The notes under the pieces were generated by a model. It saw only the letters and a program-made list of their open reading frames with translations, did no database searches and was not told where the DNA came from. Both the position numbers and the translations under genes were made by a program. Of a stretch of DNA of 57,926 nt, positions 1 through 38,003 are shown piece by piece (the first letter of the stretch is position 1; each line of letters starts with the position of its first letter). The DNA is taken from assembly GCA_913063375.1 (NCBI GenBank), contig CAJXXR010000020.1, forward strand, positions 1 through 57,926, read 5' to 3'. Origin of the DNA: an uncultured Flavobacteriales bacterium. Its GTDB lineage: Bacteria; Bacteroidota; Bacteroidia; Flavobacteriales; CAJXXR01.

Positions 1-74
1 AGGGATTCGAACCCCCGGTACTTGCGTACAATGGTTTTCAAGACCACCGCATTAAACCGCTCTGCCATCTCTCC
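1..74 (-). tRNA. tRNA-Ser (anticodon TGA), 3' end truncated by window edge
   Basis: Reverse complement of 1-74 reads GGAGAGATGGCAGAGCGGTTTAATGCGGTGGTCTTGAAAACCATTGTACGCAAGTACCGGGGGTTCGAATCCCT. This is a typical tRNA-Ser 5' end with a D-arm, an anticodon loop CTTGAAA (anticodon TGA), a long variable arm and a T-arm GGTTCGAATCC. The acceptor 3' strand lies beyond position 1. Confidence 0.85.
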
Positions 75-18075: not shown

Positions 18076-21000
18076 CTATTTCTGAGACAGTACATTTCTA
18101 ATACCATCCAATCCTTCTGTTACAGATTCTATCTGAGAAACAATCATAGCCATTTGATTGTCTCCACCAAAACCTTTTAATTTTTGATTCTTTAAGAAAG
18201 TTCTTTTGATAGCTTCCCAACGAGTCATCTCCGTCGGTTCAATCCATCCAACCAATTCTTTAAACTTCAACAAATTTGCTTCCGCACTTGTTGTAAGCGT
18301 TTGAGATTCGTTTTCATAGGCACTTAGCACAAGCGTCTTTAATTCCTTTTCATTCATTATAGGAATAATCTTCTCTGCTATCTTATTCATATTTCTATAA
18401 GATCCTTGAAGCTTAAAAGAAGGCTCCTCTCTATATTGATCCTCCATGGCTGCAGACTTGATATACTGCATATTCACTTTCAATATGATATCACGTACCT
18501 GAATCAAATGTTTCAATACTGCAACATAATCATTGATCTCTTCTACAGTATGATTGGATTCAAAGGAAATTCCCTCTTGACTATCTGTTGTTGCCAGTTT
18601 AATAAGCGCATATAAATCCTTCTGACTTTTACCAGACAAATTGCGAAGGGTAGAATTTGAAGTCAAACAATTCTCTATATAACTACTCTTAAATACATCG
18701 GCACTGTCCCCGATGATATCCCCTAAATTGTAAATATCAGCTCTATTCGCCAACATATCTGGAATCTGAAACTTATCTCCACTTTCCGTATATGGGTTCC
18801 CAGCCATTACTACACAAACCTTCTTTCCACGAAGATCGTACGTCTTACTTTGCCCCTTGAACACACCTTCAATCTTTCTTTGCCCATCACTCAAGGAAAT
18901 AAACTTCTGCAGAAATTCTGGATTACAATGTTGAATATCATCCAAATAAATCATGATATTATCCCCCATTTCAAATCCTAAATTCAATTTCTCAATCTCC
19001 TCCCTTGCTCCAGCATTTGGTGCACTTTCAGGATCCAAAGAAGTTGTCTCATAGCCCAAGGAAGGCCCATTTATCTTTAAGAAAATCACCCCCAATCGAC
19101 TGGCGATATACTCCATTAAAGTAGTTTTCCCATATCCGGGAGGAGATATCAATAAAAGCATTCCCATTAAATCAGTTCGCTTATTAGCTCCAGCTGTCCC
19201 AATCTGTTTGGCTAGATTATCCCCTATTAATGGCAGGTACACCTTATTGATCAACTTATTTCGAACAAAAGAGCTCATTACCTTTGGCTTCAATTCATCC
19301 AATTTCAAATCCAGCTTATAACGATCTATAAAACTCTTTTTCAAAGTCTTAAATTGATTAAAAGCCGGAACTTCATTCAGCACAAACCCAAGCAACCTCT
19401 TTTTATAATCTTGATAATCCAGGTTTAATTTCTGCTTCTGAATCAAGGAATGTGTTCCATTTAGACCGTCAAGATCCATTTTCAACTCAGTATCGATCAA
19501 ATGCCTTTTATCTGGCCCTGACGTCAACAGCAACATGGAGGCTTCTGAAATTAAATCCTCACTTGTTGGAGTATGAGATTCTGAGTAAGCCTTCAACCAA
19601 CTTTTGGTAATGGAATATTTTGACGAGGCTTTTACCAAGTTTTTAGTCGATTCCTCAAAGCTGGTTTTCAATTTATTTTTATTCAAATAATTTGTAAAAG
19701 CTTCACATAGATCAAAGGCTTCCTTACCAATACTAAAGCTATCATCTGAGGCCAATTCTGTAAATAGATACTTCGATACCTCCACAATATCCGCTTCAGT
19801 AAAAATACCTTCCTCAAGAATAAATTCACCAATTTCCTCACTCAAATCATGAATGAGGTCATCAAATACTTTTGTATTAGGGAAAGCTTTCAAAATATTT
19901 CCTATTCCCTTTATTTGATGATTTAAAATAGAACTCTTATCAGCATCAATAAACAGATTCCAATAAAAGGAAGCACAAGCTCTTGCCGTAGAAGAGTACT
20001 TCAAGACTCCACCCAAATGACCTATCTGCAACAAGGCCTTTACAATAATCAAAGCATCCAAATCATGAACACCTTTTACATAACCTTCGTCATACCTAGG
20101 AGCCATCGTCTCCTCAATCAATTGCAACAAGGCTTCATCGGTTCCTTCCAGCCATTCCGAAAGGCTTTGCGTACCTTTTTCTATAACCTGCAACACCAAC
20201 CAAGCTAAGTACTCAGCACGGTAAATATTTTCATTTTCAGAGACCAAGCCCTGCTTCCATACAGGTCTAGTTCTTAAGAAATCAGGATCTACAATCTGCT
20301 CAAAAAAATTGGTCCCTGTAATATGGTAATACATCTCATTATTCCTTGGAACAATAGACAGATCCAGGAGTTGATTGTTGACAGAAAACTGATGTTTCCC
20401 AAAGGATATAATTCCATCTCCTTGATAAAGTTCTGACTTATCTCTAAGTTGTCTTATAGCTTCTTCATGCGTAGACTTCAACTTACTCTGGATATTATCC
20501 GACTTTACGGTATCACCTAGTTCAACCAGGTCTTTGATAATATTCCTAAGTTTATCAACCATTAGGTCTGATGCCAAATACCCATTGATAGCATTTACAT
20601 CCTTCATTCCAGATAGACGAGTATGAATCCCCTTAATTATTCTTTCAGCAGAAAATTCTAACTGGGCAGTTTTTTTATTTCGTCTTTCTGTAAGTTGAAC
20701 TTTACGAGACTCAAATGCATTGTAGACTTCTTCTCTTTTTTCTGAGATCTTATTCAAAAAGGAATCAAATTCACCAAACTTACCTTCCAACTCTTCGAGC
20801 TGAATCAATAATTTCGTCAAATACTCTTCACATTTCTCAGCTGTATCTGAGATATCCAAATAATTAACCGCACCCTGACCAATCAGCTTCAATTGAGAAT
20901 GGAAAACAGCCTCTCCCTCTGTCAATTGTAAATCCTTCCTTTTTCTCTTTAGGACGGAATTGATCTGATTAAAACGGGCATAGATGGCAGAAATATTATT

Positions 21001-22959: not shown

Positions 22960-23072
22960 GTAAATGATTTAATAATTTGAAATAAAGAAAATACCCACAC
23001 TAATCAATTGTAGTACCAGCACCATGTACCCTACCAATGAGGGTACATCCTACCATAAGGTACTTGAATTAA

Positions 23073-25163
23073 TTAGTTTTGAATGCCTAAAGCACTTGGC
23101 GTGATATCTCCAATTCCAGCAGACTTAACAGCCGACATAAGATCATTCAGCACACCAGTAGTAGAAGTGTTATTGTTTTCTTGCATCATTCTAAACACAA
23201 TAGTAGAAATAGACAAGTTTTTCAAATCTTCTGAACTAATCCCAAATTGATCAATTAGACTTCTAATTTTTTCATTCAAATTTCTCCCGTCTACTTCGTC
23301 TAACAATTGCCCTTTCAATTCAGTCAATATTGCACTATTATTGATGGTTCTCTCTACACGTTTTCCGTTAGATATCGCACCAATAATTTTATCAAAGAAT
23401 ACAGCTTCTCCACCAACAATATCAATTTTGGCAGTTCTCAACGCTGTAGAAAGCACATCAGCTTGAGCATCCGCAATATCCTTTTGAATATGTATTTGAG
23501 CCAATTCAACTTGCTTTTGCATGTCCAATTCTAGCTTAAACTCTTCATGTTCTTTTCCAACACCATCCAACTGCTTCATTGCATCTGCTTTTCTGTGGAT
23601 CCCGTCAGCTTCTACATGGTATTTTTCTTTACTTACAGCGGCTTCTGCAAGTCCTTTCTTCTCATCAGCAATTGCTTTCAATTCAATTACCTGAGCTTCC
23701 GCATTACCCATTTCAACATCAGCCTTAGCTTGTGCTGATTGTGTTAATTCAATTGCTTTTGCTTCTGCAATAGCTTTCGCCTCCAGTATTTGCGCCTCTG
23801 CAATTCCTGAAGCTGCTTCATTTGCAACAGTGGCTTCTGCCATCACCTTGATTGCTTCTGATCTTTGAACAGAAGATTCCTGCTCTGCCTTGGCATCAAT
23901 CATGATTTGTTCAGCTTTAAACTCAGAAGATTTTTTACCGGCTTCCGCAGCTTTTATTTGTTGAACTAAATTAGCCTCGGCCAGCTCTTCGGCTTTAGTT
24001 ACAGCAACCAATTTTTCACGATCCGCTTGAGATTTAGTCTTAGTATCTTTGATGCTTTCCTCTTCAATAACAACCGTTTTTTCAATCGAAACACGCTCTC
24101 TAATTACCTCTTGAATACTTTTCTTCTCTTCTTCAATGGCCTTTTCTTTGGCAATTTGAGCAAGCGTTACTATTCTTTCTCTTTCCGTTACCTCCAACAA
24201 TCTATCCTTTTCAACCTTTTCAGTTTCAACGGCAGCGGTTCTCTCTTTATTTTTAGCAGCAACAATAACCTCTCTTTCCTTGTTTTGTTCTGCTATCTCT
24301 ATCTCTTCCGAAGCAATAATACGAGCCCTTTCAGACTTTAACCTTTCCTCTTCTACAACTTTAGCAATTTCCGCTTCTTCTCTAGATTTGATATTGGCAA
24401 CTTCCCTTTTTTGCTTTTCTTCAGTCTCGGCCAATTGTTTTTCCAATTGCAGAATAGCTTCCCTAGCTTCAACATCTTGTTTTGTAATGGTCTTCTCCTT
24501 ATTCTTTTCAATTTGATTGGATTCAATTTTTTCACGAGACGTGATTTGAATAATCTTCTTAATACCTTCAGCATCTAGAATATTATTTTGATCCATCTTG
24601 AACAAAGGTGTTTGCTCCAAATAATCAATGGCAGCATCATCCAAGATATACCCATTAAGATCTGTACCCAAACTATTTAGAATTTCCTCTCTAAAGGCAT
24701 CACGCTTATTGTATAGATCTACAAAGTCGAATTTTTTACCTACTGTTTTCAAGGCCTCTGAAAACTTTGAATCAAACAAATCATTCAATGACGCAGCATG
24801 CGAAGCCCTTGCACATCCTACAGATTGAGCTACTTGAATAACATCCTGAGCTGTTTTATTTACACGTACAAAAAACACAACCTTAATATCAGCACGCATA
24901 TTATCCTTACATACTAATCCATCAGAACCTTGACGCTCTATTAGAATATTTTTCAAGGAGATATCCATCACCTCCAATTTATGAAGGACAGGTACTACCA
25001 TCATTCCATTAAAGGATACTTTCGTACCTCCAACTCCCGTTCGAACTAGTGACTGTCCCTGAGACGTTTTTTTGTACCATTTAGCAACCATTCCGATGAC
25101 TCCCAACAATACGAGAACCAAAATTATTGTAACCATAAAAGTTGCATTTTGTAACATTTCCAT
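23073..25163 (-). CDS. Flotillin-like SPFH (band-7) domain protein
   Basis: N-terminal TM anchor, an SPFH core, then a long Glu/Ala/Lys-rich coiled-coil flotillin domain. 696 aa, like FloT/YqiK. Confidence 0.85.
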   Translation of the reverse strand: MEMLQNATFMVTIILVLVLLGVIGMVAKWYKKTSQGQSLVRTGVGGTKVSFNGMMVVPVLHKLEVMDISLKNILIERQGSDGLVCKDNMRADIKVVFFVRVNKTAQDVIQVAQSVGCARASHAASLNDLFDSKFSEALKTVGKKFDFVDLYNKRDAFREEILNSLGTDLNGYILDDAAIDYLEQTPLFKMDQNNILDAEGIKKIIQITSREKIESNQIEKNKEKTITKQDVEAREAILQLEKQLAETEEKQKREVANIKSREEAEIAKVVEEERLKSERARIIASEEIEIAEQNKEREVIVAAKNKERTAAVETEKVEKDRLLEVTERERIVTLAQIAKEKAIEEEKKSIQEVIRERVSIEKTVVIEEESIKDTKTKSQADREKLVAVTKAEELAEANLVQQIKAAEAGKKSSEFKAEQIMIDAKAEQESSVQRSEAIKVMAEATVANEAASGIAEAQILEAKAIAEAKAIELTQSAQAKADVEMGNAEAQVIELKAIADEKKGLAEAAVSKEKYHVEADGIHRKADAMKQLDGVGKEHEEFKLELDMQKQVELAQIHIQKDIADAQADVLSTALRTAKIDIVGGEAVFFDKIIGAISNGKRVERTINNSAILTELKGQLLDEVDGRNLNEKIRSLIDQFGISSEDLKNLSISTIVFRMMQENNNTSTTGVLNDLMSAVKSAGIGDITPSALGIQN

Positions 25164-25203
25164 AATCTAATCTGTTTGTTTGTTTATTAGTTTCTTTAAA
25201 AAT

Positions 25204-25860
25204 TTAATCCAATGTTTCGTAAGCCTCTACAATGTAAAATTGAGATTCCTTAATATGGTTTACCACCAATATTCTATCTCCCCTTTTCACTTGACCTTCT
25301 GTAGTTTTGATATTTATTCGATAATTTGAACCAGAGATGATCATCTCTCCTTGCCCCATTCTTGTACTATTGGCAGAAACCACGACATATCCTACTGCCC
25401 CAACCAAATCCTGAACTTCATCAGCATCCTTATCCAACAATGCAAATATCTTAACAAATGGATAGGTCACTGGCTTTGCGACCAACAGACTCACAATAAA
25501 AATGGGCAACAATAATAAGAGTGAAAATAAGAAAGAACCATTTCCCAACATATGATTTACCGTTACAGACAAAAGCCACATCGGAATTACCAAAAAGGTT
25601 AGAAAAACCATTAAAGGTATTTTATCAATATTGAAAAAGGACAGGACATTATTTAACCAGGATACTGAAATATCAGGATTTCCATCACCTTCCACTTCGG
25701 CATCCACTTCAACCTCTGCCTCCATTTCAATCTCTATATCAAATGTGCTGATATCCAATGCTCCGAATATTACAAGCAGCCAATAAAAGATTATAAATAC
25801 CAGCAATGCAGTTGGTATGAAATTTACCGCAGAAAAAGCGGCATGAAAAAGTTCCATCAT
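25204..25860 (-). CDS. NfeD-like membrane protein (short form, C-terminal OB-fold)
   Basis: Hydrophobic N-terminal half with 3-4 TM segments and an acidic EIEMEAEVEVDAEVEGD insert. The C-terminal beta-barrel (GQGEMIISGSNYRINIKTTEGQVKRGDRILVV) resembles YuaF/NfeD partners of flotillins. Located 40 nt upstream of the flotillin gene. Confidence 0.55.
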   Translation of the reverse strand: MMELFHAAFSAVNFIPTALLVFIIFYWLLVIFGALDISTFDIEIEMEAEVEVDAEVEGDGNPDISVSWLNNVLSFFNIDKIPLMVFLTFLVIPMWLLSVTVNHMLGNGSFLFSLLLLLPIFIVSLLVAKPVTYPFVKIFALLDKDADEVQDLVGAVGYVVVSANSTRMGQGEMIISGSNYRINIKTTEGQVKRGDRILVVNHIKESQFYIVEAYETLD

Positions 25861-25919
25861 GATCTAATAATTAATGAAGTATACCTAGTAAGTTTAAATT
25901 TGATCCTTTAGAATTGAAC

Positions 25920-26618
25920 TTATTTATTCAATCCCATTTTGGCTTTAAGGGCTGCCAAACTAGTAGCCGCATTTAATTCCTTGAGAGTCGTGTCAATTTC
26001 AACGCGTACCAGTTCATCAGAATCATTCAATTGAGCATATCCCTCAGCACTTGCTTCTTCCTGCAGTACTTTATCTTTCATTCTCTCCAACATGGCAATG
26101 GTACCAGATGAATCTATTTGCGCTATGTCTTTATTCAATTCTTTGGTAGTGGAAGCAACTACGGCACGTGCCCTCAATGTTTTCAATTCAGAATCCCATT
26201 GATCAACATTTAACTTCACTCGGCTAATATTGGCATTAAGCTGGGACAATGATGCATCAATCTTTTGCTTGTTCTTAGATGACTCCTTACTAAATTGTAT
26301 CTGCTCTTCTCGAAGAATCAATGCCTGGGTCGCCAACCAGTCAGCTTGCTCTTTATCCAAATCTCCATTCTTAGCACGTTCCAAAAGAATGCTAGCCTTT
26401 TCTTCATAATCTTTAGCCTTTGCAAGAAATTTTTCATGCTCATTCCTAGCTCTAATAGACATCGCCTTTACTTCTGCAAATGCTTTAAGGTGACTCTCTA
26501 AATGATTTTTCATATCTCTAATTCCTTGCTCCATAAGTTTAATTGGATCCTCCAATTTATCGATTGCAGAATGGGATTCTGCTTCACCAATCTTAAATAA
26601 ACGTTTTAAAAAATTCAT
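25920..26618 (-). CDS. PspA/IM30 (Vipp1, ESCRT-III-like) family protein, paralogue 1
   Basis: 232 aa coiled-coil protein. N-terminus MNFLKRLFKIGEAESHSAIDKLEDPIKLMEQGIRDMKNHL is collinear with PspA. First gene of the cluster. Confidence 0.85.
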   Translation of the reverse strand: MNFLKRLFKIGEAESHSAIDKLEDPIKLMEQGIRDMKNHLESHLKAFAEVKAMSIRARNEHEKFLAKAKDYEEKASILLERAKNGDLDKEQADWLATQALILREEQIQFSKESSKNKQKIDASLSQLNANISRVKLNVDQWDSELKTLRARAVVASTTKELNKDIAQIDSSGTIAMLERMKDKVLQEEASAEGYAQLNDSDELVRVEIDTTLKELNAATSLAALKAKMGLNK

Positions 26619-27172: not shown

Positions 27173-28714
27173 TTGAAAAAAAGTCAATCTAGAATACTAA
27201 AATTAGCACTTTTCGCCACAGGACTATCTGGGATAGTTGCTGAATATATTTTATCCACCCTTGCCACCTACTTCCTTGGAGATTCTGTATTCCAATGGAC
27301 CATGATCCTTTCCATCATGTTATTTTCCATGGGGCTTGGAGCTAGGCTTAGCATGAAATTCAAAACCAATATTTTAGAAAAATTTCTAATTGCTGAATTT
27401 CTACTAACCCTTCTTACTTCAACTGCCGCCCTAACTACCTATTTCTTTATGGGGCATGCTGAAAATCTGGGATTCATCATATACAGCTTCTGTATTAGTA
27501 TTGGCCTTTTGATAGGTATGGAAATCCCACTGGTAACTAGGGTTAATGAAGAAAATGAAGAACTAAGAACCAATATTGCAGGTGTATTAGAAAACGACTA
27601 TTATGGAAGTTTGATAGGTGGTTTATTCTTTGTATTCATTGGTCTTCCTTATTTAGGCCTTACCCACACGCCATTTATTTTGGGTACCATCAACTTCCTA
27701 GTAGCCATATTACTTTTCATCAAACTAAAAGATCATATTGCTAAAAGGTTCAAAATTGGCTTTGCCATCACCATTCCAAGTTTAATAATTATACTAAGCT
27801 TCCTTAGCTATAATGCAGATGAGATAGTTCTATACGGGGAGCAAAAAAGATACAATGACAAGGTTGTTTTCTCTAAACAAACCAAATACCAAAAAATCAC
27901 AATCACCCAATGGCAAGAAAATTACTGGCTATACCTTAATTCCAGCAAACAACTTTGCACGTTTGATGAGTGGCTTTACCATGAACCACTGGTACATCCA
28001 GTAATGAAACTAACAACACACCCTAAGCATGTATTAATCCTAGGCGCAGGAGATGGTTGCGCAATCCGAGAGGTATTGAAATACGAAAATGTTGAAAAAA
28101 TCACCCTCGTAGACATTGATCCTGAGATGACCAAAATTGGTAGGTCCAACGAAATTTTCGTTAAGATGAACGACAGCGCCTATTACGATCCCAAAGTAAC
28201 GGTTATCAATCAGGACGCATTCCAATTTCTAGAAAATAATGAAGAATTTTACGATGTCATGATCCTAGATTTCCCTGATCCAAAAAGCATTGATATCAAC
28301 AGAGTTTATACCAAGGAATTTTACACCCTCTGCAACAAAAGACTTCGCCCATTGGGACATATCATTACCCAAGCCGTAAGCCCATATTATACAACAAAAG
28401 CCTTTAGGTCCATTGAAAAAACATTAGCTGCCTCTGGATTCAATACACTTCCAATTCACAACCACGTATACTCTTTTGGCGAGTGGGGATGGGTAATAGG
28501 TTCCAAATTCCAAGATAAGGAGAAAATGAAACAGCATCTACTGAAATCCAATTATCAAGATTTAGATGTACAATGGATCACCAATGAATCCATTAATCTT
28601 ATGACCTCCTTTGGCAAAGACCTTATCAAAGCAGATGACATAGAAGTAAACACCATTCATAACCCTGTCTTATACCGCTATTACCTAGACGGAACTTGGG
28701 CTAGATACCTGTAA
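27173..28714 (+). CDS. Membrane-anchored spermidine synthase-like aminopropyltransferase (paralogue 1)
   Basis: About 200 aa with ~7 TM helices, then a Spermine_synth domain (VLILGAGDGCAIREVL, TLVDIDPEMT, ILDFPDP). Confidence 0.75.
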   Translation: MKKSQSRILKLALFATGLSGIVAEYILSTLATYFLGDSVFQWTMILSIMLFSMGLGARLSMKFKTNILEKFLIAEFLLTLLTSTAALTTYFFMGHAENLGFIIYSFCISIGLLIGMEIPLVTRVNEENEELRTNIAGVLENDYYGSLIGGLFFVFIGLPYLGLTHTPFILGTINFLVAILLFIKLKDHIAKRFKIGFAITIPSLIIILSFLSYNADEIVLYGEQKRYNDKVVFSKQTKYQKITITQWQENYWLYLNSSKQLCTFDEWLYHEPLVHPVMKLTTHPKHVLILGAGDGCAIREVLKYENVEKITLVDIDPEMTKIGRSNEIFVKMNDSAYYDPKVTVINQDAFQFLENNEEFYDVMILDFPDPKSIDINRVYTKEFYTLCNKRLRPLGHIITQAVSPYYTTKAFRSIEKTLAASGFNTLPIHNHVYSFGEWGWVIGSKFQDKEKMKQHLLKSNYQDLDVQWITNESINLMTSFGKDLIKADDIEVNTIHNPVLYRYYLDGTWARYL

Positions 28715-28717
28715 TCT

Positions 28718-29797
28718 ATGTGGCTATTTAGCAGAAAAAAAGACTTTGGTATTCTGTACTTACCAGTATGGATAATCTGGATACTCCTATTCCTTCTTCC
28801 CAACGCAACACTCCATAGTGAACTTCCATTATGGGTTTGGGTCGTATTCATATTAGGAATAGATGTAAGCCATGTATGGAGCACTATTTTTAGAACCTAT
28901 TTTGACAAGCAAGAATTTAAGAGACACAAAACCATTTTAATTCTAGCCCCGATTTTTGCATTCATTATCCTGTTAGGAATTGCGCTAGAATCTTCTTTAT
29001 ACTTTTGGAGGACATTGGCTTATTTAGCGGTTTTCCACTTCATGAAACAACAATATGGGTTTTTCGCACTCTACAGTGCTAAAACAAAATCTTTTAACAA
29101 ACATAGATTTCTCAATGATAAATGGGTTCTCTACACCAGTATGCTATTCCCGGTACTATTCTGGCATTTCACCGACCGAAATTTTGACTGGTTCCTAGCT
29201 GGTGATTTCTTCTCTTTCAACTACCAACTAAGTGAGCAATTACAAAATGTACTAATCATTGCCTACTGGGGGATTTTACTAGCTTGGTTTATCGAAGAGA
29301 TTCACTTAATCAAAACAAAAGCAATAAAGCTATCATATGGGAGGATGTTATGGATGGGAACCACAGCTTTCAATTGGTTTCTAGGAATTATTTGGTTCAA
29401 CTCTGATGTTGCATTTACGCTAACCAATGTAGTTGCACACGGCATCCCTTATATCGCATTGATAATCATTTATCAAAATGCAAAAAGAAGCACAAAGAAT
29501 ACACTTCTTTATAAAAATGCATTTATTACTGGAGCAAGTATTTTGGTCTTTTCCTTCCTTTTTGCATTTTCTGAAGAATATCTTTGGGATATGTTTCTAA
29601 ACCGTGAAAAAACTGCATTTTTCAACAGTATTTTCCAGTATAGATTTGATAGTCTTACCAATGAAAAACTACAGTCCCTACTGCTAGTCACACTATCATT
29701 ACCACAGGTTACACATTATATCTTGGACGGATTTATTTGGAAAATGAATGACTCCAATCCACATCTTAAAAATATTTTAACAAAAGGAAATGGATAG
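28718..29797 (+). CDS. Polytopic membrane protein with conserved His clusters, function unknown
   Basis: 359 aa, 8 or more TM segments, recurrent His motifs (HVWSTIF, FHFMKQQYG, HGIPY). Starts 3 nt after the stop of 27173..28714 and overlaps the next gene by 8 nt. Confidence 0.55.
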   Translation: MWLFSRKKDFGILYLPVWIIWILLFLLPNATLHSELPLWVWVVFILGIDVSHVWSTIFRTYFDKQEFKRHKTILILAPIFAFIILLGIALESSLYFWRTLAYLAVFHFMKQQYGFFALYSAKTKSFNKHRFLNDKWVLYTSMLFPVLFWHFTDRNFDWFLAGDFFSFNYQLSEQLQNVLIIAYWGILLAWFIEEIHLIKTKAIKLSYGRMLWMGTTAFNWFLGIIWFNSDVAFTLTNVVAHGIPYIALIIIYQNAKRSTKNTLLYKNAFITGASILVFSFLFAFSEEYLWDMFLNREKTAFFNSIFQYRFDSLTNEKLQSLLLVTLSLPQVTHYILDGFIWKMNDSNPHLKNILTKGNG

Positions 29798-31301
29798 AAG
29801 AATGTTCTTAAAGTTAAGCGGAGGATTACTTTTCCTATCTGCTTGTGACAATGATTTTACCCAAAAATCTAAATTGAAAAATACTAGATTTAAAATCCAC
29901 ATCGACTCCAATGATAAAATTGGACACTTGGTACGATCTGCCGTCCAACTACCAATTTCAAGTACCATCAAAACAGAGACATTAATTGTAGGGGCAGGAA
30001 TATCTGGACTATCTGCTGCATGCACATTAAAGTCAAATGACTTTCAACTGTGTGAATTGAATCCAAACTTAGGCGGAACCTCAAGTGCCGTATCTATCCA
30101 TGGGAATTTATATTCACAAGGCGCCCATTACGATTTAGCCTATCCTAGCAATTATGGGAAGGATGGCTTAGAACTACTAGAACAGTTAAACGTTATCCAG
30201 TTTAACAGCACTAAAAACCTTTGGGAATTCAAAGACAAACAATACTTGATCTCTTCAAAAAATGAAGAAGCTTGTTATGATAACGGGAAATTGAGGGCTT
30301 CCATTTTAGAAGATTCCGAATTAAAGAAAAACTTTCTATCCTTAATAAAAGAATACGATAATCAATTCCCCCTACCAAGTACAGCGATCTCATCAGAATT
30401 ACATCATTTAGATCATATTTCTTTTGAAGACTACCTTAGGAAGTATCTACCTATTGACAATCATTTCCTTGAAGCAATTGACTATCAAATGTTGGATGAT
30501 TATGGAGCCGCAAGTAAACAAATATCTGCTCTTGCAGGTATCCATTACTATAAATGCCGCCCCTATTACAACCATCAGGAAATTGAACTATTTTCGCCAC
30601 AAAAAGGAAATTACTACTTCATAGAAAAGATGGTTGAGCAACTTCCTGAAGAAAACATTAACAGCAACCATTTAGTATTTAAGATTGAGCAAGAAGGAGC
30701 CAAATGGAAAGCAGACGTATTGGATGTTTTAAACATGTCAAGAAAACAATTCATTGTAGACAAATTGATTTATGCAGGACAAAAGCACGTTTTAAAATAT
30801 GCTCACCCTTCCTCATATCAAGAATTCAGTGACATAGATTATGCACCTTGGATTGTCATAAATTTAGAATTGGACGACTCACTACTTGACGGAAGTAAAT
30901 GGCAAAATGACTTTTTATCTCCCAATAGATCATTCCTAGGATTTGTTGATTCAAAAAATCAAGACAATACAAACACTCGAGTATTAACAGCCTACCACTG
31001 CTTCCCGGACATACACCACTTTATTGTTCAAAATATTTCAACCCATGCAGAAGACTTGGTAAACGAAACAATCAACAACATATCCCTATACTTTAAAAGA
31101 GATATTAGCCCAATGGTAAAACAAGTCCATGTAAAACTATTGGGACACGCCATGCCAATTCCGAAATTGGGTTACTTAACCAAGCAAAGAGTATTGGAAA
31201 AGGATGGTTTAGCATTTGCAGGGGCTGACACGGGAAGATTACCACTTATGTTCGATGCAATGGATTCTGGAATACAGGCCAGCAAATCGCTCGAAATATA
31301 A
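29790..31301 (+). CDS. Tat-exported FAD-dependent amine-oxidase-family lipoprotein
   Basis: Twin-arginine motif DRRMFLK plus lipobox LSAC. Dinucleotide fold VGAGISGLSAAC...LNPNLGGT, typical of flavin amine oxidase and protoporphyrinogen-oxidase-like enzymes. Confidence 0.6.
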   Translation: MDRRMFLKLSGGLLFLSACDNDFTQKSKLKNTRFKIHIDSNDKIGHLVRSAVQLPISSTIKTETLIVGAGISGLSAACTLKSNDFQLCELNPNLGGTSSAVSIHGNLYSQGAHYDLAYPSNYGKDGLELLEQLNVIQFNSTKNLWEFKDKQYLISSKNEEACYDNGKLRASILEDSELKKNFLSLIKEYDNQFPLPSTAISSELHHLDHISFEDYLRKYLPIDNHFLEAIDYQMLDDYGAASKQISALAGIHYYKCRPYYNHQEIELFSPQKGNYYFIEKMVEQLPEENINSNHLVFKIEQEGAKWKADVLDVLNMSRKQFIVDKLIYAGQKHVLKYAHPSSYQEFSDIDYAPWIVINLELDDSLLDGSKWQNDFLSPNRSFLGFVDSKNQDNTNTRVLTAYHCFPDIHHFIVQNISTHAEDLVNETINNISLYFKRDISPMVKQVHVKLLGHAMPIPKLGYLTKQRVLEKDGLAFAGADTGRLPLMFDAMDSGIQASKSLEI

Positions 31302-32843
31302 CTAATACAAATCCCAATTACCATCTAAATAGTAACGGTACAGTACTGGAGAATTTATAGTATTTACTTCCACCTTAGAGGTGTCAAACAAGGGTTTTCC
31401 AAAAGAAGTAATCAACTGAATAGACTCCCTATTCAACCATTTATTATTCAAATAGCTATAATCAGATTGACGCATTATATCAATCATTTTATCTTTAGTT
31501 AGACGCTTACTACCAATTATCCAACCCCATTCCCCTAAGGTCAAAACCTGATTATGCATCGGTAATGTATGGAATCCGGAAGATGACATTGTAGTCTCTA
31601 TGCACTTAAAAGCCTTAGTAGCATAATAGGGACTTCCAGCTTGGGTAATGATATGACCATTTGGGCGCAATAAACGATAAGCCATCTGATAAAATTCCTG
31701 CGTATACAACTTATTCAAATCGATACTTTTGGCATCAGGTAGATCAACAATTATTAAGTCAAAATAAGTTTCACACTGCTCTAAATATTTAAACCCATCC
31801 TGATTTAATATAGCAACCTTCGGATTAAAAAGGGCTGAATCATTATACTGTGTTAAGCCTTTAAAATCCATTCCTATTCGAGTCATTGCAGGGTCCAAAT
31901 CCACCAAGGTGATTTGATCCACATCCTCGTATTTTAAAAGCTCCTTCACATTAAAGCCATCTCCACCACCAATTATTAGAACGTCCTTATGCTCTGGAGT
32001 CAATGCAACTACTGGATGTACCATCGGCTCATGGTACAAAAACTCATCGAAGGTACTTAGTTGTTGATTTCCATTTATAAACAACCAATAATGCTCCTTC
32101 CATTGGGTAATGGTTATTTTCTGATAAGGAGTTTGCTCCGTGTATACAATCTTATCTTTATACCTAGATTGCTCACCAAACAGAACTACCTTTTCTGAAA
32201 GCGAAAATCCAACCATCAACAACAAACTAATGAAAAAGGAAACAGAATAAACCCACTTTTTTAATTGCGGATAATAGGACTTATAGTTCCAATACAATAA
32301 GACTGCAACAGTAAAATTTAAGGCACCGAAGGCGAATGCTGTATTGGTAATACCCAAGTATGGAAGACCAAAAAAGGCAAATGACAATCCCCCTATCAAA
32401 CTACCAATATAATCCCAAGACATAATATTGGATATATTCTTATCCAAACTTTCATGCTTCTCATTCAAGCGTGTTACTAGCGGGATTTCAAAACCAATAC
32501 AAACACCAATCAATAAGGCCAAACCATAAATTAGAATATGGATGAAATTGGTTGCTGAAGCTAAAGAGTAAACAACTAAAGGAGAAAAACTTATTAATAA
32601 TGATAAGGCAAATTCAACTGCAATAAAAGTGGCCAACAAATCTTTTGTCACAAATCGACTTAGACGACTCCCCACCCCCATTGCAAACAACATAATAGAC
32701 AAAACAACTGTCCATTGTATAATAGTATCACCTATAAAATAAGAGGCAAGGGTAGATAAAATAAATTCAGAAGTAAAGCCAGAAATTCCTGTGGCAAAAA
32801 TGGCCAACTTCAACCAAGTACCCTTGTCGATTTTAAACTGCAT
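31302..32843 (-). CDS. Membrane-anchored spermidine synthase-like aminopropyltransferase (paralogue 2)
   Basis: 513 aa, same architecture as 27173..28714 (VLIIGGGDGFNVKELL, TLVDLDPAMT, IVDLPDA). Its stop codon abuts the stop of the convergent FAD-oxidase gene (TAACTA). Confidence 0.75.
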   Translation of the reverse strand: MQFKIDKGTWLKLAIFATGISGFTSEFILSTLASYFIGDTIIQWTVVLSIMLFAMGVGSRLSRFVTKDLLATFIAVEFALSLLISFSPLVVYSLASATNFIHILIYGLALLIGVCIGFEIPLVTRLNEKHESLDKNISNIMSWDYIGSLIGGLSFAFFGLPYLGITNTAFAFGALNFTVAVLLYWNYKSYYPQLKKWVYSVSFFISLLLMVGFSLSEKVVLFGEQSRYKDKIVYTEQTPYQKITITQWKEHYWLFINGNQQLSTFDEFLYHEPMVHPVVALTPEHKDVLIIGGGDGFNVKELLKYEDVDQITLVDLDPAMTRIGMDFKGLTQYNDSALFNPKVAILNQDGFKYLEQCETYFDLIIVDLPDAKSIDLNKLYTQEFYQMAYRLLRPNGHIITQAGSPYYATKAFKCIETTMSSSGFHTLPMHNQVLTLGEWGWIIGSKRLTKDKMIDIMRQSDYSYLNNKWLNRESIQLITSFGKPLFDTSKVEVNTINSPVLYRYYLDGNWDLY

Positions 32844-32860: not shown

Positions 32861-33751
32861 CTAAGAAAAGCTCATACAGATTAGCATAGAACCACCCACA
32901 TATGCAAAGGCTTCAATTACAGCAGCGCCTACATTTGGATGTTCTTGGTTGATGATTTCATCTACCAATTTTCTTTTCGGAAGTAAGATCTTATCTGTCA
33001 AGATCCTAGCAATAGGCAATAACAACAGACCAATACCAGTTTCAAACAATAGATTCTCACCCACCATCATCCAACTTTCAGCCTCCATTTGAGCACCGAA
33101 TCTTATCAAATTCCCAATAGCAACTATTGCGCCTGCGAATCCTATTCCAACCGCTACATTATCTTTTTCAATATGCTCATGAATATCATAAGGTGTGATG
33201 GCATTATAAACCAATGCAACCAACATCAAAGCGACTTGAGCAAAGAGCCAGAATAGTAAAATACCAATAAAATTGTCTTGATTCTCTGCTATGACACCGC
33301 TAATAATCAATCCATTTGCAATACAAACAGCTCCCTCAATAACTCCTAAACCAACATTTTGATCTTCTATAATTTCCTTTTTTACGGAATACTTTCTCAA
33401 AACAACCTTATCAGAGATGATCATAGAAACATTTAGCAATACAATTGCCAATAATCCATAAATGGAAATATCTATAATATTATCTACGATATGATCAACT
33501 CCGTCTCCCGCATAAACGGCTGATATGACAATAACCAACCCAACATAATACCCAACATGAGCAAATGAAAAAGCTAGGTTATCTTTTTCCACCAATTCAT
33601 GATCTAAATCGATATCCTTATGAATTAATTGATATACTTTCTTCCCTACTAAAAATAGAACAAAGCTAACAGCCAAGTAAACCAAAGCCGTAAGTAGATT
33701 ATCTAATGATGATAAAAAATTAAAATGCATACTAGTATAGTTTAAATTCAA
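32861..33751 (-). CDS. Membrane protein with two tandem DUF350-like repeats (YjfL-like)
   Basis: Two internally repeated halves, each ...Y..I...D...E....N.A......G..V.......AV. The second ends ITPYDIHEHIEKDNVAVGIGFAGAIVAIGNLI. DUF350 assignment is from memory of the YjfL family. Confidence 0.45.
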   Translation of the reverse strand: MNLNYTSMHFNFLSSLDNLLTALVYLAVSFVLFLVGKKVYQLIHKDIDLDHELVEKDNLAFSFAHVGYYVGLVIVISAVYAGDGVDHIVDNIIDISIYGLLAIVLLNVSMIISDKVVLRKYSVKKEIIEDQNVGLGVIEGAVCIANGLIISGVIAENQDNFIGILLFWLFAQVALMLVALVYNAITPYDIHEHIEKDNVAVGIGFAGAIVAIGNLIRFGAQMEAESWMMVGENLLFETGIGLLLLPIARILTDKILLPKRKLVDEIINQEHPNVGAAVIEAFAYVGGSMLICMSFS

Positions 33752-33759
33752 TTAGGGAA

Positions 33760-34458
33760 TTATTTACCAAATCCAGATCCACGAGATCTACCTCCTGATC
33801 TACTTCTTGATGAAGACCAACCAGATTTTGTAGCACGCCTAGAGAAAAAAGATGGTCTAGACTTCTTAGTTTGAGCAGAATTGGTACCATATTTAGAGTA
33901 CTTTCCTTCTTTTGGACCATAATAGCTTCTTTTTCCATAATAGCCTCCCCCACGATATGTATTATAATCGCTTCTGTAAACAGGTCTGTTCATCATTCCG
34001 AACATCTGACTCATAAACATATATCGACCATAAAATGACCAAAATGAACTACCATTATGAGTTCTCCATTCACCATACTTGGAATCACCCACATATCTAT
34101 AACCTGGAGGAACTGCAACTTTAGATAAGGATCCATCTGGGCCCTTTTCCAAAACAACCATCCCTAAATTACCTTCATTCTTCCAAAAGAATTCTTTCTC
34201 CACTTCTTTCCAATCAGAAGTAGATTCAGTAGGAATACTATCAGCAACACGAATTACCTTATACTTGTGTTTATAGGTCTTAAAGAAAGTCCCATCTACA
34301 TCCATATCTTCAATGATGACAGAAAATTCTTTTTCATCACTTAACTCGACAATATAGCTATCAAGCGGTGATTTTTTATACTCTCGACCACCACAACTAC
34401 TCAAAATAGTAAACAACACTACGGCTATTCCACTAAAAAGAATTGATTTTAATTTCAT
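33760..34458 (-). CDS. Lipoprotein with Gly/Ser/Arg-rich C-terminal tail (possibly DUF1190/YjfM-like)
   Basis: Lipobox LSSCGG. A central aromatic/Met-rich block (FWSFYGRYMFMSQMFGMMNRP) and a GGGYYG...SRSRSGGRSRGSGFGK tail resemble E. coli YjfM. Confidence 0.4.
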   Translation of the reverse strand: MKLKSILFSGIAVVLFTILSSCGGREYKKSPLDSYIVELSDEKEFSVIIEDMDVDGTFFKTYKHKYKVIRVADSIPTESTSDWKEVEKEFFWKNEGNLGMVVLEKGPDGSLSKVAVPPGYRYVGDSKYGEWRTHNGSSFWSFYGRYMFMSQMFGMMNRPVYRSDYNTYRGGGYYGKRSYYGPKEGKYSKYGTNSAQTKKSRPSFFSRRATKSGWSSSRSRSGGRSRGSGFGK

Positions 34459-34465
34459 CTATGTT

Positions 34466-34996
34466 TTATCTAGGTAGAATGTTTGAAAACTCAAACGCAT
34501 CTACATTTTTACCTATTGCCGCACCGAATTCTTCTTCTCCCCATCGGTCAATAGAAATCAACTCCTTGGTTTCAGAATGTACATACATCCAATTCACCAA
34601 TTCAGATCCTTCTTCTTCACCTTCAATATAACAAATTCCTTGACTGGACTCGGTACGCTTATACGTTTTATTATTATACACCAATCTATTCGGTGCCTCA
34701 TCATTTGCAACAATACTATTCACTAAGTCGGCATCAATTTCAAAAATATCCACCTTCTTCCAAACTAAACATACCAATTTATCGTCGTCTTCGACGCTAA
34801 GGTAACAATCTTCAGTCCCAGAATCTAAAAAATATTCTTTGCTATAAAAATTATTTCCCCAATCATAGGTATATACCTTTTTCACCTCCCAAGTTTTCAT
34901 GAAATAATCCACAAGGAATCCCAATTTCATATCATTCAAGGTGAAATCTACATTCGGCTCTTCCTTTTTAGATTTAAAAAAATCAAATATTCCCAT
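34466..34996 (-). CDS. Hypothetical cytoplasmic protein (176 aa)
   Basis: Clean ORF sitting 3 nt after the stop of the upstream K+ channel gene. No diagnostic motifs. Confidence 0.5.
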   Translation of the reverse strand: MGIFDFFKSKKEEPNVDFTLNDMKLGFLVDYFMKTWEVKKVYTYDWGNNFYSKEYFLDSGTEDCYLSVEDDDKLVCLVWKKVDIFEIDADLVNSIVANDEAPNRLVYNNKTYKRTESSQGICYIEGEEEGSELVNWMYVHSETKELISIDRWGEEEFGAAIGKNVDAFEFSNILPR

Positions 34997-34999
34997 AAT

Positions 35000-35815
35000 T
35001 TATTTATTTTTCATGGTTTTACCACAATGCTCACAAACACAATCTTCTTTATCTTCCTTTTTATCCTTTTCAGTATTTCCGAATCCATTGGCTAAAATCC
35101 CAGCCGGAAGCGCAAATATTCCAATACCGAGGATAGCCATTACTCCGGCCATAACTTTACCCATAGCGGTAATAGGATAAACATCACCATAACCAACAGT
35201 AGTAAGTGTAGCTACTCCCCACCACATGGTAGCTGGGATACTCGAAAATGTTTCAGGCTGAACTTCATTCTCTATAAAATACATCAAACTTGAAGCAACC
35301 ACCAATAAAGTTATTACTGCAAAAAGCGATATAATTAATTCCTCTTTAGCAGCTTTCATCACTCTCTTTATATGTGAAAGTGCTTTATTATACCTTCCCA
35401 ACTTTAATATTCTAAACAATCGAAGCAAACGAACCCCTCTCAAAATTCTTAAATCCGCCTTTATTAATAATGGAACGAAGGCAGGGATTATAGCCAATAA
35501 ATCTACAATACTATAGAAGGAAAAAAAATATTTAATACGACCAGCAATTGGCCTACTATAGGCACTCTTCTCAGTAATAGACCAAATTCTTAATAAATAT
35601 TCAATGGAAAAAATCCCTATAGATATCCATTCAAGAATGGAAAAAATCTGTTGGAATTCAATCCTAATCCAGGAAACCGATTCCAAAATAACAGCTAAAA
35701 TATTTAGAAGGATTAAGGTGATTATTAAGAAATCTACACGACGACTTATCTCATCTCCCTTTTTCCCTTTCTCTAAAATTTCGTAACAACGACTTTTAAG
35801 GCTCCTGTAACTCAT
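35000..35815 (-). CDS. Voltage-gated K+ channel (6-TM Kv-like, KvAP-type)
   Basis: S4 voltage sensor RILRGVRLLRLFRILKLGR, pore helix and selectivity filter TLTTVGYGD, S5/S6 helices. The start codon abuts the speD stop (35815/35816). Confidence 0.8.
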   Translation of the reverse strand: MSYRSLKSRCYEILEKGKKGDEISRRVDFLIITLILLNILAVILESVSWIRIEFQQIFSILEWISIGIFSIEYLLRIWSITEKSAYSRPIAGRIKYFFSFYSIVDLLAIIPAFVPLLIKADLRILRGVRLLRLFRILKLGRYNKALSHIKRVMKAAKEELIISLFAVITLLVVASSLMYFIENEVQPETFSSIPATMWWGVATLTTVGYGDVYPITAMGKVMAGVMAILGIGIFALPAGILANGFGNTEKDKKEDKEDCVCEHCGKTMKNK

Positions 35816-36178
35816 TTACGATACTTGCATTATTCCCAATCCTCTCTTTACACTTTGATAACTATGATTTTTTGATTGTAATTTTTCTACCAAATAATCA
35901 TAGGTTTTCAAATAATCCATTTTCAGATTACAGGTGAAAAAATCCACTGCAGCATAACCGTTCTCTGGCCAAGTATGAATAGCCAAATGACTCTCTGCAA
36001 CAACAACAACTCCTGTTACTCCTTGAGGTGAAAATTTGTGAAAAACTGATTTTATCACAGTTGCTTTGGAAGCCTTAGCAGCTGCAATCATATCCACCTC
36101 CAATTCCTCCATATTATCTAACGCATCAAAAGAACAATCATTGAATTCCATTAAAATATGTAAGCCTAATTCCGCCAT
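35816..36178 (-). CDS. speD: S-adenosylmethionine decarboxylase proenzyme (class 1, pyruvoyl-dependent)
   Basis: 120 aa. Self-cleavage/pyruvoyl site VVVVAESHLAIHTWPE and FTCNLK match SpeH/SpeD. Confidence 0.8.
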   Translation of the reverse strand: MAELGLHILMEFNDCSFDALDNMEELEVDMIAAAKASKATVIKSVFHKFSPQGVTGVVVVAESHLAIHTWPENGYAAVDFFTCNLKMDYLKTYDYLVEKLQSKNHSYQSVKRGLGIMQVS

Positions 36179-36346
36179 CTATTTATTCCTTTTCTTTTAT
36201 ATCGTCTCCAAAAATACACAATGGTAAAAATTATAATTACCGGAAACAACAAACTAATAATCAGTGAAAAAGTCCACCAAATTGCCAAAATAATCAATAA
36301 TTGAATGATTAATGGGATTATATTCTTGAAACGCACAATTATAATT

Positions 36347-36382
36347 TTTTCTAAAAACCAAAAGAGGCCAAATAGCCTCTTT
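36347..36382 (-). terminator. Rho-independent terminator after PspA paralogue 2
   Basis: On the minus strand: aaagaggc/tatttg/gcctcttt hairpin followed by tggttttt, 20 nt past the PspA-2 stop. It separates PspA-2 from the speD operon. Confidence 0.6.
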
Positions 36383-36402
36383 CAATTCTTGATTAGGAAA
36401 TA

Positions 36403-37125
36403 CTATCCTTTATTTTCTTCTTTTTTCGCTGCCATCTTTGCCTTCAAAGCTGCCAAGCTATCTGATGCTTTACTAGCACCTGGATTACCAATAGCTTTAT
36501 CAATTTCCTCATCTACAGATCTTGATTCATTGGAAATATCACCATAAGCTTCTGACAAGGCTTCTTCTTGCTCTACCTTTTCCTTCATTCTTTCTAACAT
36601 AGAAATGGTATCTGAAGAATCAATAGAAGCCATTTGCTTATTTAGATTTTTGGTAGCGGAAGCAACCTTCACCCTAGCTTTTAAGGTTTTTAGCTCATTC
36701 TCCCATGAACCAATCTTTGAGCGTAAGGTCTTAACATTGGCTTCCAATTTTCTAACATTACCACCAAATTGAACCTGATCCTTTTGTAAACGAGTAGCAT
36801 TAGCCTCGCTGTCCACCTTTCGGTTTAACGCCTCGCTTGCCAATCTATCTGCTTCCTCTGCACCTATTTGGCCTGATTCAGCTCTTTGCAATAACAACAT
36901 AGCTTTTTTCTCATAATCTGAGGCTTTATTTTGTTCATTGCTAATATCATTTCTTGACCTGATCTCTAAAGCTTTCACTTCAGCCAATGCCTTTAAACAG
37001 CTTTCAAGATCCTTTTTCATATCTCTAATCCCCTGCTCAGTCATTTTGATAGGGTCTTCTAACTTATCCACTACGGAATTTACTTCTGATTTACCCAAGG
37101 TAAATAATCGCCTAAATATACTCAT
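36403..37125 (-). CDS. PspA/IM30 family protein, paralogue 2
   Basis: 240 aa. N-terminus MSIFRRLFTLGKSEVNSVVDKLEDPIKMTEQGIRDMKKDL parallels paralogue 1 and PspA. Confidence 0.85.
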   Translation of the reverse strand: MSIFRRLFTLGKSEVNSVVDKLEDPIKMTEQGIRDMKKDLESCLKALAEVKALEIRSRNDISNEQNKASDYEKKAMLLLQRAESGQIGAEEADRLASEALNRKVDSEANATRLQKDQVQFGGNVRKLEANVKTLRSKIGSWENELKTLKARVKVASATKNLNKQMASIDSSDTISMLERMKEKVEQEEALSEAYGDISNESRSVDEEIDKAIGNPGASKASDSLAALKAKMAAKKEENKG

Positions 37126-37137
37126 AACTACTGTTCC

Positions 37138-37533
37138 TTATCTTTTTGAAAATGTGATTAACTGATCTGAATATTCAGATAATAATAAACCTAAAGAATT
37201 GATAGACCCTTCTAGTTCATTTTGATCCAAATTTAGAATCTGCAAAGTATCCCTGAAAATTAACTTCTCCCCTGTTTCATCTAATACAAAAGCTCCATGA
37301 AGGATATCTCTGTTTTTCTGTAATAGTTGCTTATACACAGATGGGTCTGCATCTTTTAAATCTAGGATATGCTGCTCCAAAATCAAAAATGGATCTGCAC
37401 AGCCCAAAACGAAGTTCTTAATACCAACACTCTCATCCTCGATCACTAAAATACCATCATCTTCATTTTCCACAGTGATTAGATATCCGATGTCAAGGAG
37501 GAAATTCTTGACTTTTTCAAAGCTACTTGTCAT
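37138..37533 (-). CDS. Small acidic cytoplasmic protein co-transcribed with PspA-2 (YbjN/YjfI-like?)
   Basis: 131 aa, 12 nt upstream of PspA-2. The fold assignment is a guess. Confidence 0.45.
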   Translation of the reverse strand: MTSSFEKVKNFLLDIGYLITVENEDDGILVIEDESVGIKNFVLGCADPFLILEQHILDLKDADPSVYKQLLQKNRDILHGAFVLDETGEKLIFRDTLQILNLDQNELEGSINSLGLLLSEYSDQLITFSKR

Positions 37534-38003
37534 GTCTTTATTTTTCTTTATATCAGTCTATTAAATGGATTGTAATCTCATCATCTTCACAACCACTAAT
37601 TTATTTAAAATCTGCTGATTTTTTAAATTTTTTTGATGATTTCAGCATTCAAATTTATCCGTTTGCTAAATCCGATACACAATGATACTACAATTTTTAG
37701 TAATTGCACAATATTTTAGCAAAATAATTAGTGAAAATACAAGAATCACTCAAATAAACCTCCTTATCAAACGCACATCAGACTTAACAATACGCCCAAA
37801 GACTCAATAAATCCAATACTTTACACATACGATAGCAATATTGCTAATATAATTAGTAAACAAACCAAGCCAATTACAAATTCTTATCACTATTTGAAAT
37901 AATCTATATAAATTCTTGCATAAAAATGTAAGTACTGAATGAAAGAACCTATTTCACTTTAGAAATAAAATGACCTTATGATCAAAATTGATAACTTTGG
38001 ATT

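Follow-up and report, generated by a model that had tools for sequence, protein, structure and literature searches.

A Kv-type potassium channel gene directly downstream of speD in aminopropyltransferase operons of marine Bacteroidota

Why should the gene of a potassium channel of the voltage-gated type begin right after the stop codon of a decarboxylase gene? This arrangement occurs in the 57,926-nt contig CAJXXR010000020.1 of an uncultured Flavobacteriales bacterium (assembly GCA_913063375.1), the whole of which we refer to as the window, where speD, encoding S-adenosylmethionine decarboxylase (AdoMetDC), is followed by the gene of a six-transmembrane (6TM) Kv-type K+ channel. What prokaryotic voltage-gated K+ channels do in the cell is, to our knowledge, largely undefined despite their use as structural workhorses. 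A preliminary description of this DNA had drawn attention to the pair and proposed a check of its synteny in related genomes; the gene directly preceding Kv is speD in 20 further genomes, one per species, of two Bacteroidota orders, so that the pairing is not unique to this genome, the finding which that description had said would speak against it. On balance we favour, with modest confidence, the reading that Kv is a lineage-specific and selection-maintained accessory, co-transcribed with a PspA-linked membrane-stress aminopropylation module to which it would add a K+ conductance.

The speD-Kv junction and its conservation

Read on the coding strand the junction is ATCG TAA ATG AGT, with the speD stop (TAA, 35816-35818) abutting the channel start (ATG, 35813-35815) and a spacer of 0 nt, as the preliminary description had it. 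The identities which that description gave to the two genes, taken here from the list of open reading frames (ORFs), are likewise borne out by Pfam, NCBIfam and alignments to solved structures. SpeD scores 129.6 bits with AdoMet_dc and 134.5 with the TIGR03330 equivalog (cutoff 75.65), aligns without gaps to the Thermotoga maritima AdoMetDC 1TLU over residues 1-106 (E 6e-31) and retains AESH with its Glu62-Ser63 cleavage, His68 and FTC (Cys83), thereby combining the domain and equivalog matches, the Glu-Ser site and the catalytic His and Cys of a class 1b enzyme. The channel matches Ion_trans over residues 26-252 (116.3 bits, cutoff 25) and its closest solved structures are KCNQ4/5/2 and Kv1.3 (E ~1e-31 over residues 3-251; 9e-32 for KCNQ4). 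The full S4 of the form RxxRxxRxxRxxRxxK and the TVGYGD filter noted earlier are both present in its sequence; within RILRGVRLLRLFRILKLGR each third residue is an Arg or Lys, which makes seven basic residues in all, in an alignment with KCNQ4 that spans S2-S4. Counter-charges are found in S2 (E62...F69..E72) and in S3 (D105 of IVDLLAIIP), and FALPAGIL in S6 matches KCNQ. Profile, K+ selectivity filter and the S4 basic residues with their S2/S3 counter-charges place the protein among Kv-type channels, and its sequence carries a complete voltage-sensor and pore signature. The NCBIfam model of a hyperpolarisation-activated archaeal channel gave 61.5 bits, below its cutoff of 300, gating polarity not being readable from sequence. 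Coordinates of these and other features are collected in Table 1.

Table 1. Features of the speD-Kv operon and adjoining genes in the window
Feature	Position	Strand	Basis or remark
CesT/Tir-like (YbjN-like) chaperone, first gene of the string	37138..37533	-	Pfam CesT_Tir_1, 178.7 bits
PspA/IM30 membrane-stress protein	36403..37125	-	Pfam PspA_IM30, 154.4 bits
Hairpin and U-tract just after the pspA stop	36352..36391	-	dG -18.8 kcal/mol, then UUUUGGUUUUU
56-aa hydrophobic small ORF, overlapping the speD start by 13 nt	36166..36336	-	ORF list
speD, class 1b pyruvoyl S-adenosylmethionine decarboxylase proenzyme, 120 aa	35816..36178	-	Pfam, NCBIfam, 1TLU alignment
ESH self-cleavage site of SpeD	35987-35995	-	alignment
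6TM Kv-type K+ channel, 271 aa	35000..35815	-	Pfam Ion_trans, structure matches, motifs
Channel S4	35393-35449	-	RILRGVRLLRLFRILKLGR, aa 123-141
TVGYGD filter	35183-35200	-	aa 206-211
LPAG S6 hinge	35099-35110	-	as in KCNQ
C-terminal CVCEHCGK motif	35024-35041	-	channel C-terminus
DUF4178 protein	34466..34996	-	Pfam, 76 bits
Predicted lipoprotein, 232 aa, lipobox LSSC, low-complexity Gly/Ser/Arg/Tyr tail	33760..34458	-	sequence
DUF350 (YjfL-family) polytopic membrane protein, two repeats	32861..33751	-	Pfam, 189 bits
Membrane-fused aminopropyltransferase paralogue 1 (N-terminal transmembrane region and Spermine_synth)	31302..32843	-	Pfam; PRK03612 533 (cutoff 472)
FAD amine-oxidase-like protein, convergent with the operon	29790..31301	+	Pfam Amino_oxidase and NAD_binding_8
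359-aa His-rich polytopic membrane protein	28718..29797	+	no Pfam match
Membrane-fused aminopropyltransferase paralogue 2	27173..28714	+	Pfam Spermine_synth; NCBIfam PRK03612 548 (cutoff 472)

To determine how widely the pair is kept we scanned one genome per species for relatives of the Kv protein, obtaining 80 loci (individual loci are given as L numbers), and scored speD linkage by hidden Markov model (HMM) search within ±8 kb; the sampling overall comprised 80 + 80 loci with ~20 contexts inspected. The 20 linked loci among the 80, all from marine Bacteroidota, comprise each of the 14 Flavobacteriales matches and six of the seven members of a Cytophagales clade. The 14 Flavobacteriales, including Aquimarina, Kordia and marine metagenome-assembled genomes, encode Kv proteins 63-71 % identical to that of the window and carry the full operon as found there, with speD-Kv between pspA and the DUF4178 gene; those for which the fetched DNA was long enough (L001, L003, L005-L013) also have the convergent amine oxidase and the second aminopropyltransferase. 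In the six Cytophagales (Cyclobacteriaceae, Flammeovirgaceae and Fulvivirga) Kv is 49-57 % identical to the window protein and the order is short speD, Kv, an aminopropyltransferase with a transmembrane (TM) region, sometimes a 360-aa membrane protein, and amine oxidase. One of them (L015) has a PspA operon next door on the opposite strand, without speD or Kv, and at the edge of another (L023) only the end of a convergent TM-aminopropyltransferase gene is seen. A further copy of the operon (L083), found via relatives of the aminopropyltransferase, has speD overlapping Kv by 20 nt. The gene order is common to L001-L014 and L083 and, apart from the missing Kv, to L171 and L172. The genes that flank the cluster in the window were not found beside it in L001-L014, and since synteny stops at the cluster edges the conservation is specific to the cluster. 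A Kv search of plasmids returned only 'ion transporter' genes, called unlinked in a search of which their surroundings were not part.

The spacing of the two genes runs from +12 nt to an overlap of 68 nt. Among Flavobacteriales it is 0 nt in the window, L001 and L003, +1 in L009, -11 in five loci and -20 in six, and among Cytophagales it is +12, +5, +4, -13, -23 and -68 nt. Overlapping or nearly adjoining stop and start codons of the kind expected of a translationally coupled pair thus recur across the orthologues, and speD-Kv is a candidate for such coupling. Tight or overlapping junctions, on which the coupling put forward earlier was based, are however generic to the whole operon and not specific to this pair.

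Origins of the pairing and operons without the channel

The two linked groups differ in both partners. Their speD genes are ~21-31 % identical between Flavobacteriales and Cytophagales compared with 40-60 % within the short subtype. A neighbour-joining (NJ) tree of Kv (81 sequences, 265 columns, 100 bootstrap replicates) recovered the Flavobacteriales Kv clade with 100 % support and the Cytophagales Kv clade with 82 %, placed an unlinked Bacteroidota channel (L021) as sister to the latter in 82 % of replicates and joined the two linked clades in 2/100. These data favour two events that each brought speD and Kv together, or else a single old event after which speD was replaced, and given the different speD subtypes and the 2/100 bootstraps the juxtapositions are probably independent.

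A second type of channel is found in related operons. In a Bacteroidales locus (L082) the order CesT-PspA-DUF4178-lipoprotein-DUF350-x-aminopropyltransferase-short speD-rhomboid is followed by a 2TM Ion_trans_2+TrkA_N (RCK) channel, and in L087 an aminopropyltransferase gene and speD precede the same RCK channel type, which overlaps speD. Judged by its place in the gene order, the RCK channel of Bacteroidales-type operons is an analogous replacement of Kv.

A number of observations weigh against a selected role for the channel, several of them in agreement with an alternative in which Kv landed once or twice after speD and has persisted by vertical inheritance and read-through with no functional tie to its neighbours. 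The minus-strand gaps from cesT to the aminopropyltransferase gene are 12, 66, -13, 0, 3, 7, 8 and 17 nt, so that every gap downstream of that between pspA and the small ORF is at most 17 nt; because the whole unit downstream of pspA is tightly packed, the zero spacer between speD and Kv is not special and their abutment is uninformative. In the HMM search 60 of the 80 Kv relatives lacked speD within ±8 kb, and the Kv family as a whole is therefore not tied to the AdoMetDC pathway. Two sister loci (L171, L172) contain the same operon with speD of the same long subtype (61-62 % identity) and no channel, speD running into the DUF4178 gene with a gap of 3-4 nt and the flanks holding a rhomboid gene and an HTH regulator as in L083. 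No channel was present on inspection of L109, L173 and L174, nor a K+ channel in the clusters inspected in Ralstonia, Burkholderia, Ensifer, Gemmatirosa and Alteromonas, five replicons which combine speD, DUF350 and aminopropyltransferase genes, sometimes with amine oxidase or with TelA and DUF4178. Since otherwise identical operons and the sampled proteobacterial and Gemmatimonadota versions are without it, the channel is not a core part and is dispensable for the system. Trees of the two aminopropyltransferase paralogues disagree on whether Kv was gained or lost relative to L171 and L172, and with NJ on 265 columns the case against one ancient pairing event is not firm.

We nevertheless consider a passenger gene unlikely. 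Such an account has to accommodate that Kv falls into two clades, speD into two subtypes and the gene order into two architectures, with the channel always directly after speD, and that another K+ channel type takes the equivalent place both in operons of the Bacteroidales type and in a gammaproteobacterial PspA operon known from the literature. It also has to accommodate a pair that is kept while flanking synteny is lost, down to 49 % Kv identity.

The rhomboid protease gene noted above recurs at 11988-12548 in L082, 3751-4344 in L083, 4526-5116 in L171 and 4660-5250 in L172. In L082 it stands between speD and the RCK channel gene and in the other three upstream, where an HTH_3 regulator gene on the opposite strand follows; there is none near the window operon.

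A possible role for the channel in the operon

The signals around the pair bear on how it might be transcribed. The only real break in the string of genes falls after pspA, where the hairpin of Table 1 is located and where comparable hairpins are found in L001, L002, L009, L011 and L014. This is a possible intrinsic terminator or attenuator separating cesT-pspA from the speD-Kv unit; a generic terminator scan missed it. A Bacteroidetes-type -7 motif, TATTTTTG, lies at 36209-36216, 30 nt upstream of the speD ATG, and a second at 37650-37657 upstream of cesT. An independent promoter for the channel gene had been named as a finding that would speak against the pairing, and the speD sequence preceding Kv contains no TAnnTTTG motif in the window, nor does it in most orthologues; in the window as a whole the motif occurs 91 times against 79 ± 9 expected, and because it is not enriched over chance single hits, or their absence here, are weak evidence. 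A sigma-70 promoter scan was uninformative (30 sites against 29.9 expected), this being the wrong promoter type for Bacteroidota, and an Rfam search of the operon returned no riboswitch or other RNA element.

AdoMetDC supplies decarboxylated S-adenosylmethionine (dcAdoMet) to aminopropyltransferases. In the reading we favour SpeD would provide dcAdoMet to one or two membrane-fused aminopropyltransferases, which together with DUF350, DUF4178, the lipoprotein and amine oxidase would form the core of the module. Kv would be transcribed with speD and the downstream genes, either by read-through of the post-pspA hairpin or from a promoter just upstream of speD, and would probably be translated by termination-reinitiation, since the reading frames abut or overlap. 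The channel would give a voltage-controlled K+ conductance to the membrane that houses the aminopropyltransferases. One option is that under envelope stress, to which PspA systems respond, K+ efflux would pull the potential of a depolarised membrane back towards the K+ equilibrium potential, and another is that the conductance would compensate charge during accumulation or movement of dcAdoMet or of cationic aminopropylated products. That a K+ conductance is probably useful to the system, and its presence no accident, is suggested above all by two gating types recurring beside or one gene from speD in three layouts, with a K+ channel placed after pspA in a published fourth.

The likely substrate of SpeD differs in certainty between its subtypes. 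Li et al. 2023 showed that some SpeD homologues of phages decarboxylate arginine or ornithine (SpeDA/SpeDC), and they report no clean sequence discriminator between these substrates and AdoMet. For the window SpeD the long type and the clustering with aminopropyltransferases favour AdoMet. The short subtype (97-116 aa) occurs in the Cytophagales and Bacteroidales operons, and a metagenome scan seeded with it returned mostly phage-like contigs (L088-L118), where the gene lies between ParB-like and terminase-like genes, as well as one further speD-RCK channel case, the L087 locus described above. With its nearest metagenomic relatives mostly on phage-like contigs, and given the activities of phage homologues, the substrate of the short operonic speD is uncertain.

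The preliminary description had set the pair within a polyamine and membrane-stress operon. The PspA and polyamine-type setting is upheld, but 'polyamine synthesis' may be the wrong frame for it, since Ravi et al. 2024 (mSystems, PMC11237479), citing Li et al. 2019, connect its AdoMetDC and membrane-fused aminopropyltransferase with aminopropylation of non-putrescine substrates. Going by what Li et al. 2019 reportedly found, the AdoMetDC of the operon probably serves an aminopropylation that does not make spermidine.

It had also been suggested that polyamines might gate the channel, by analogy with inward rectifier (Kir) channels. Polyamines block Kir and BK channels. In the window the channel is co-located with enzymes of dcAdoMet and aminopropyl transfer, and the tails following S6 are somewhat more acidic in the linked clades, with a mean of 5.0 and 6.1 acidic residues in their first 30 positions compared with 3.9 in unlinked relatives, so that a polyamine or other aminopropylated cation could be imagined to gate or block the pore from the cytoplasmic side with Kir-like rectification. 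However inner S6, where Kir channels have their rectification Asp, is free of acidic residues in each of the 76 Kv proteins of the family that were examined, and a Kir-style block lacks a structural basis. The protein is a minimal 6TM channel without the cytoplasmic domain of the Kir type, which is 2TM and has an acidic inner-helix pore residue; closely related channels exist in genomes without speD linkage; and it is 'aminopropylation of other substrates' for which Ravi et al. refer to Li et al. 2019 (PMC11237479). The Kir analogy is thus a weak one and we regard such gating as distinctly improbable.

A further alternative concerns the voltage sensor. PspA systems respond to loss of proton-motive force, and among the operon genes no PspB, PspC or PspF homologue was seen with Pfam. 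An intact voltage-sensor sequence next to a PspA system without PspBC could make the channel its missing input, reporting depolarisation by contact to PspA/CesT or to the aminopropyltransferases, with conduction secondary. Against this, TVGYGD is conserved in all speD-linked orthologues and perfect conservation of the filter and gate motifs speaks for conduction; moreover RCK channels without a voltage sensor replace Kv in other lineages and the Cytophagales pair is detached from pspA. We think such a sensory role very improbable.

Returning to the conductance reading, a bolder form of it can be put forward only tentatively, as a possibility with the balance against it. K+ channels would here be dedicated partners of the Bacteroidota AdoMetDC/membrane-aminopropyltransferase stress system, recruited at least twice as Kv and separately as RCK, and Kv would couple voltage to the making or handling of an aminopropylated membrane or envelope compound, by repolarising the cell once that chemistry is turned on or by being itself tuned by the product. 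Were this so, prokaryotic Kv channels would for the first time have a defined physiological setting, and the DUF350/DUF4178/TM-spermidine synthase (SpdSyn) system would gain a clue to its function. The conserved pairing with AdoMetDC in cultured marine Flavobacteriia (Aquimarina, Kordia) gives a setting in which the physiology of a bacterial Kv channel can be tested, and together with the RCK stand-ins it ties the role of such channels to the widespread PspA/AdoMetDC/aminopropyltransferase system. Nothing established is overturned by the finding.

Two further features of the channel may be added. The GC and GC3 values of the Kv gene equal those of neighbouring genes, a composition that gives no support to recent horizontal insertion of the channel gene. 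A C-terminal half-zinc-knuckle motif CPHCG(K), CVCEHCGK in the window, is conserved across the recovered bacterial Kv family in many phyla (L018-L080) and has been lost in the Cytophagales speD-linked clade; a C-terminal CxCxxC as a feature specific to speD linkage was accordingly rejected, CxxCG(K) being family-wide and absent from one of the linked clades. The four CxxC pairs of a channel tetramer could form inter-subunit metal sites, of which we know no description for the C-terminal CxxCG(K) of Kv channels.

Neighbouring genes and comparison with known systems

Upstream of speD the cesT and pspA genes adjoin with a 12-nt gap as a CesT/Tir-PspA dyad, and downstream of Kv the TM-fused Spermine_synth, DUF350 and DUF4178 genes are all present. 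The 56-aa ORF between pspA and speD matched no Pfam family significantly (every E > 0.5, far below cutoffs); ORFs of 51-52 aa occupy the same position in L002, L004 and L008 and share the pattern ...WW...K..F.P...Y.W.KY..., and the ORF is absent from Aquimarina loci, where the pspA-speD intergenic region is short. The lipoprotein has no Pfam match in a comparison of which the Ctha_1186 domain profile was not part. Its position is conserved in L001-L015, L081-L083 and L109, its LSSC lipobox and low-complexity tail resemble the 'LipoSIG+Ctha_1186+Low-comp' architecture of Ravi et al., and it probably corresponds to their 'Ctha_1186' lipoprotein. The amine oxidase beside the operon and the second aminopropyltransferase are conserved in L001-L013. 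Homologues of the 359-aa protein occur at the same position in L007, L008, L010-L012, L017 (9976-11058) and L023 (10170-11273). Lying between aminopropyltransferase 2 and amine oxidase in Flavobacteriales and Cytophagales and missing in Aquimarina, this protein has the conserved His motifs DVSHVW, FHF, AHG and THY and may be an uncharacterised membrane-bound enzyme of the pathway.

A second PspA module adjoins the cluster at 18076-26618 on the minus strand. It consists of a PspA paralogue (25920-26618), proteins of 218 and 696 aa without family assignment and a 1627-aa DUF3686/DUF7902/AAA+ ATPase (18076-22959, minus strand). In L174 the same giant ATPase is encoded directly upstream of DUF4178-lipoprotein-DUF350-aminopropyltransferase, and with a second PspA system next door the window can be viewed as a super-island of PspA-related modules. 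Elsewhere in the window a pair of minus-strand ORFs, each exactly 576 aa long (9473-11203 and 12328-14058) and ~1.1 kb apart, may be a tandem duplication, and a tRNA gene is cut by the window edge (1-74, minus strand; Rfam, 39.5 bits).

The channel resembles the solved channels KCNQ4 (7vnp), KCNQ2 (7cr0), Kv1.3 (7ej1) and the Kv1.2-2.1 paddle chimera (2r9r) in its 6TM layout, S4, S2/S3 counter-charges and TVGYGD filter. It differs in its length of 271 aa, in having no T1, calmodulin-binding or other cytoplasmic domain and in the family-wide C-terminal CxxCG(K), which is not found in the solved Kv and KCNQ channels. With Kir inward rectifiers it shares only the conceptual link between polyamines and a K+ pore; their 2TM architecture, cytoplasmic domain and acidic pore-lining residues are all absent from the window channel.

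As a gene neighbourhood the window compares with systems built on AdoMetDC, a membrane-fused (MFS-like) SpdSyn-like enzyme and DUF350, likewise joining a class 1b AdoMetDC to a PRK03612-type enzyme and DUF350. The same AdoMetDC/membrane-fused SpdSyn core is present in the clusters inspected in Ralstonia, Burkholderia, Ensifer, Gemmatirosa and Alteromonas, unlike the window without a K+ channel. In such systems Li, Kurihara, Kim, Liang and Michael (2019, Biochem J 476:2579) reportedly found the AdoMetDCs to be active and the fusion protein to make no spermidine. Ravi et al., who cite Li et al. 2019 for AdoMetDC linkages also, report the DUF350/DUF4178/TM-SpdSyn system in mycobacteria as well, and an aminopropylation directed to the membrane or envelope and tied to membrane stress is their own inference (PMC11237479). 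Searches of the literature for speD or AdoMetDC with a K+ or Kv channel gave no description of a 6TM Kv beside speD, and the papers searched gave neither an identified product nor a functional study of the PspA/AdoMetDC/membrane-aminopropyltransferase/DUF350/DUF4178 system.

The closest published relatives are two of the operon groups of Ravi et al. Group 2 combines CesT/Tir-PspA with a 7TM-spermine/spermidine-synthase-like protein, DUF350 (YjfL), the Ctha_1186 lipoprotein and DUF4178, an example being Shewanella oneidensis SO_3765, whose operon is listed without speD or a channel (PMC11237479). All five named components have counterparts in the window, in the case of the lipoprotein a probable one, on one strand and tightly packed, to which the window adds speD, Kv and the small TM ORF inside the operon; it further has the convergent second aminopropyltransferase, 359-aa protein and amine oxidase, and no RHH regulator. 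Group 3 comprises PspA/ATP-grasp (glutathionylspermidine-synthetase-like) operons with an RCK K+ channel, as in Alteromonas addita AMJ95269.1 (PMC11237479). Like the window, it unites a K+ channel with the CesT/Tir-PspA dyad, DUF350, a lipoprotein and polyamine-type enzymes in a single operon, but there the RCK channel comes after pspA and not after speD, and an ATP-grasp ligase stands in place of the aminopropyltransferase. The pairing had been called unusual. The operon type itself is in the literature, as is the presence of a K+ channel in a sister class of operons, and the new part is the Kv channel beside speD.

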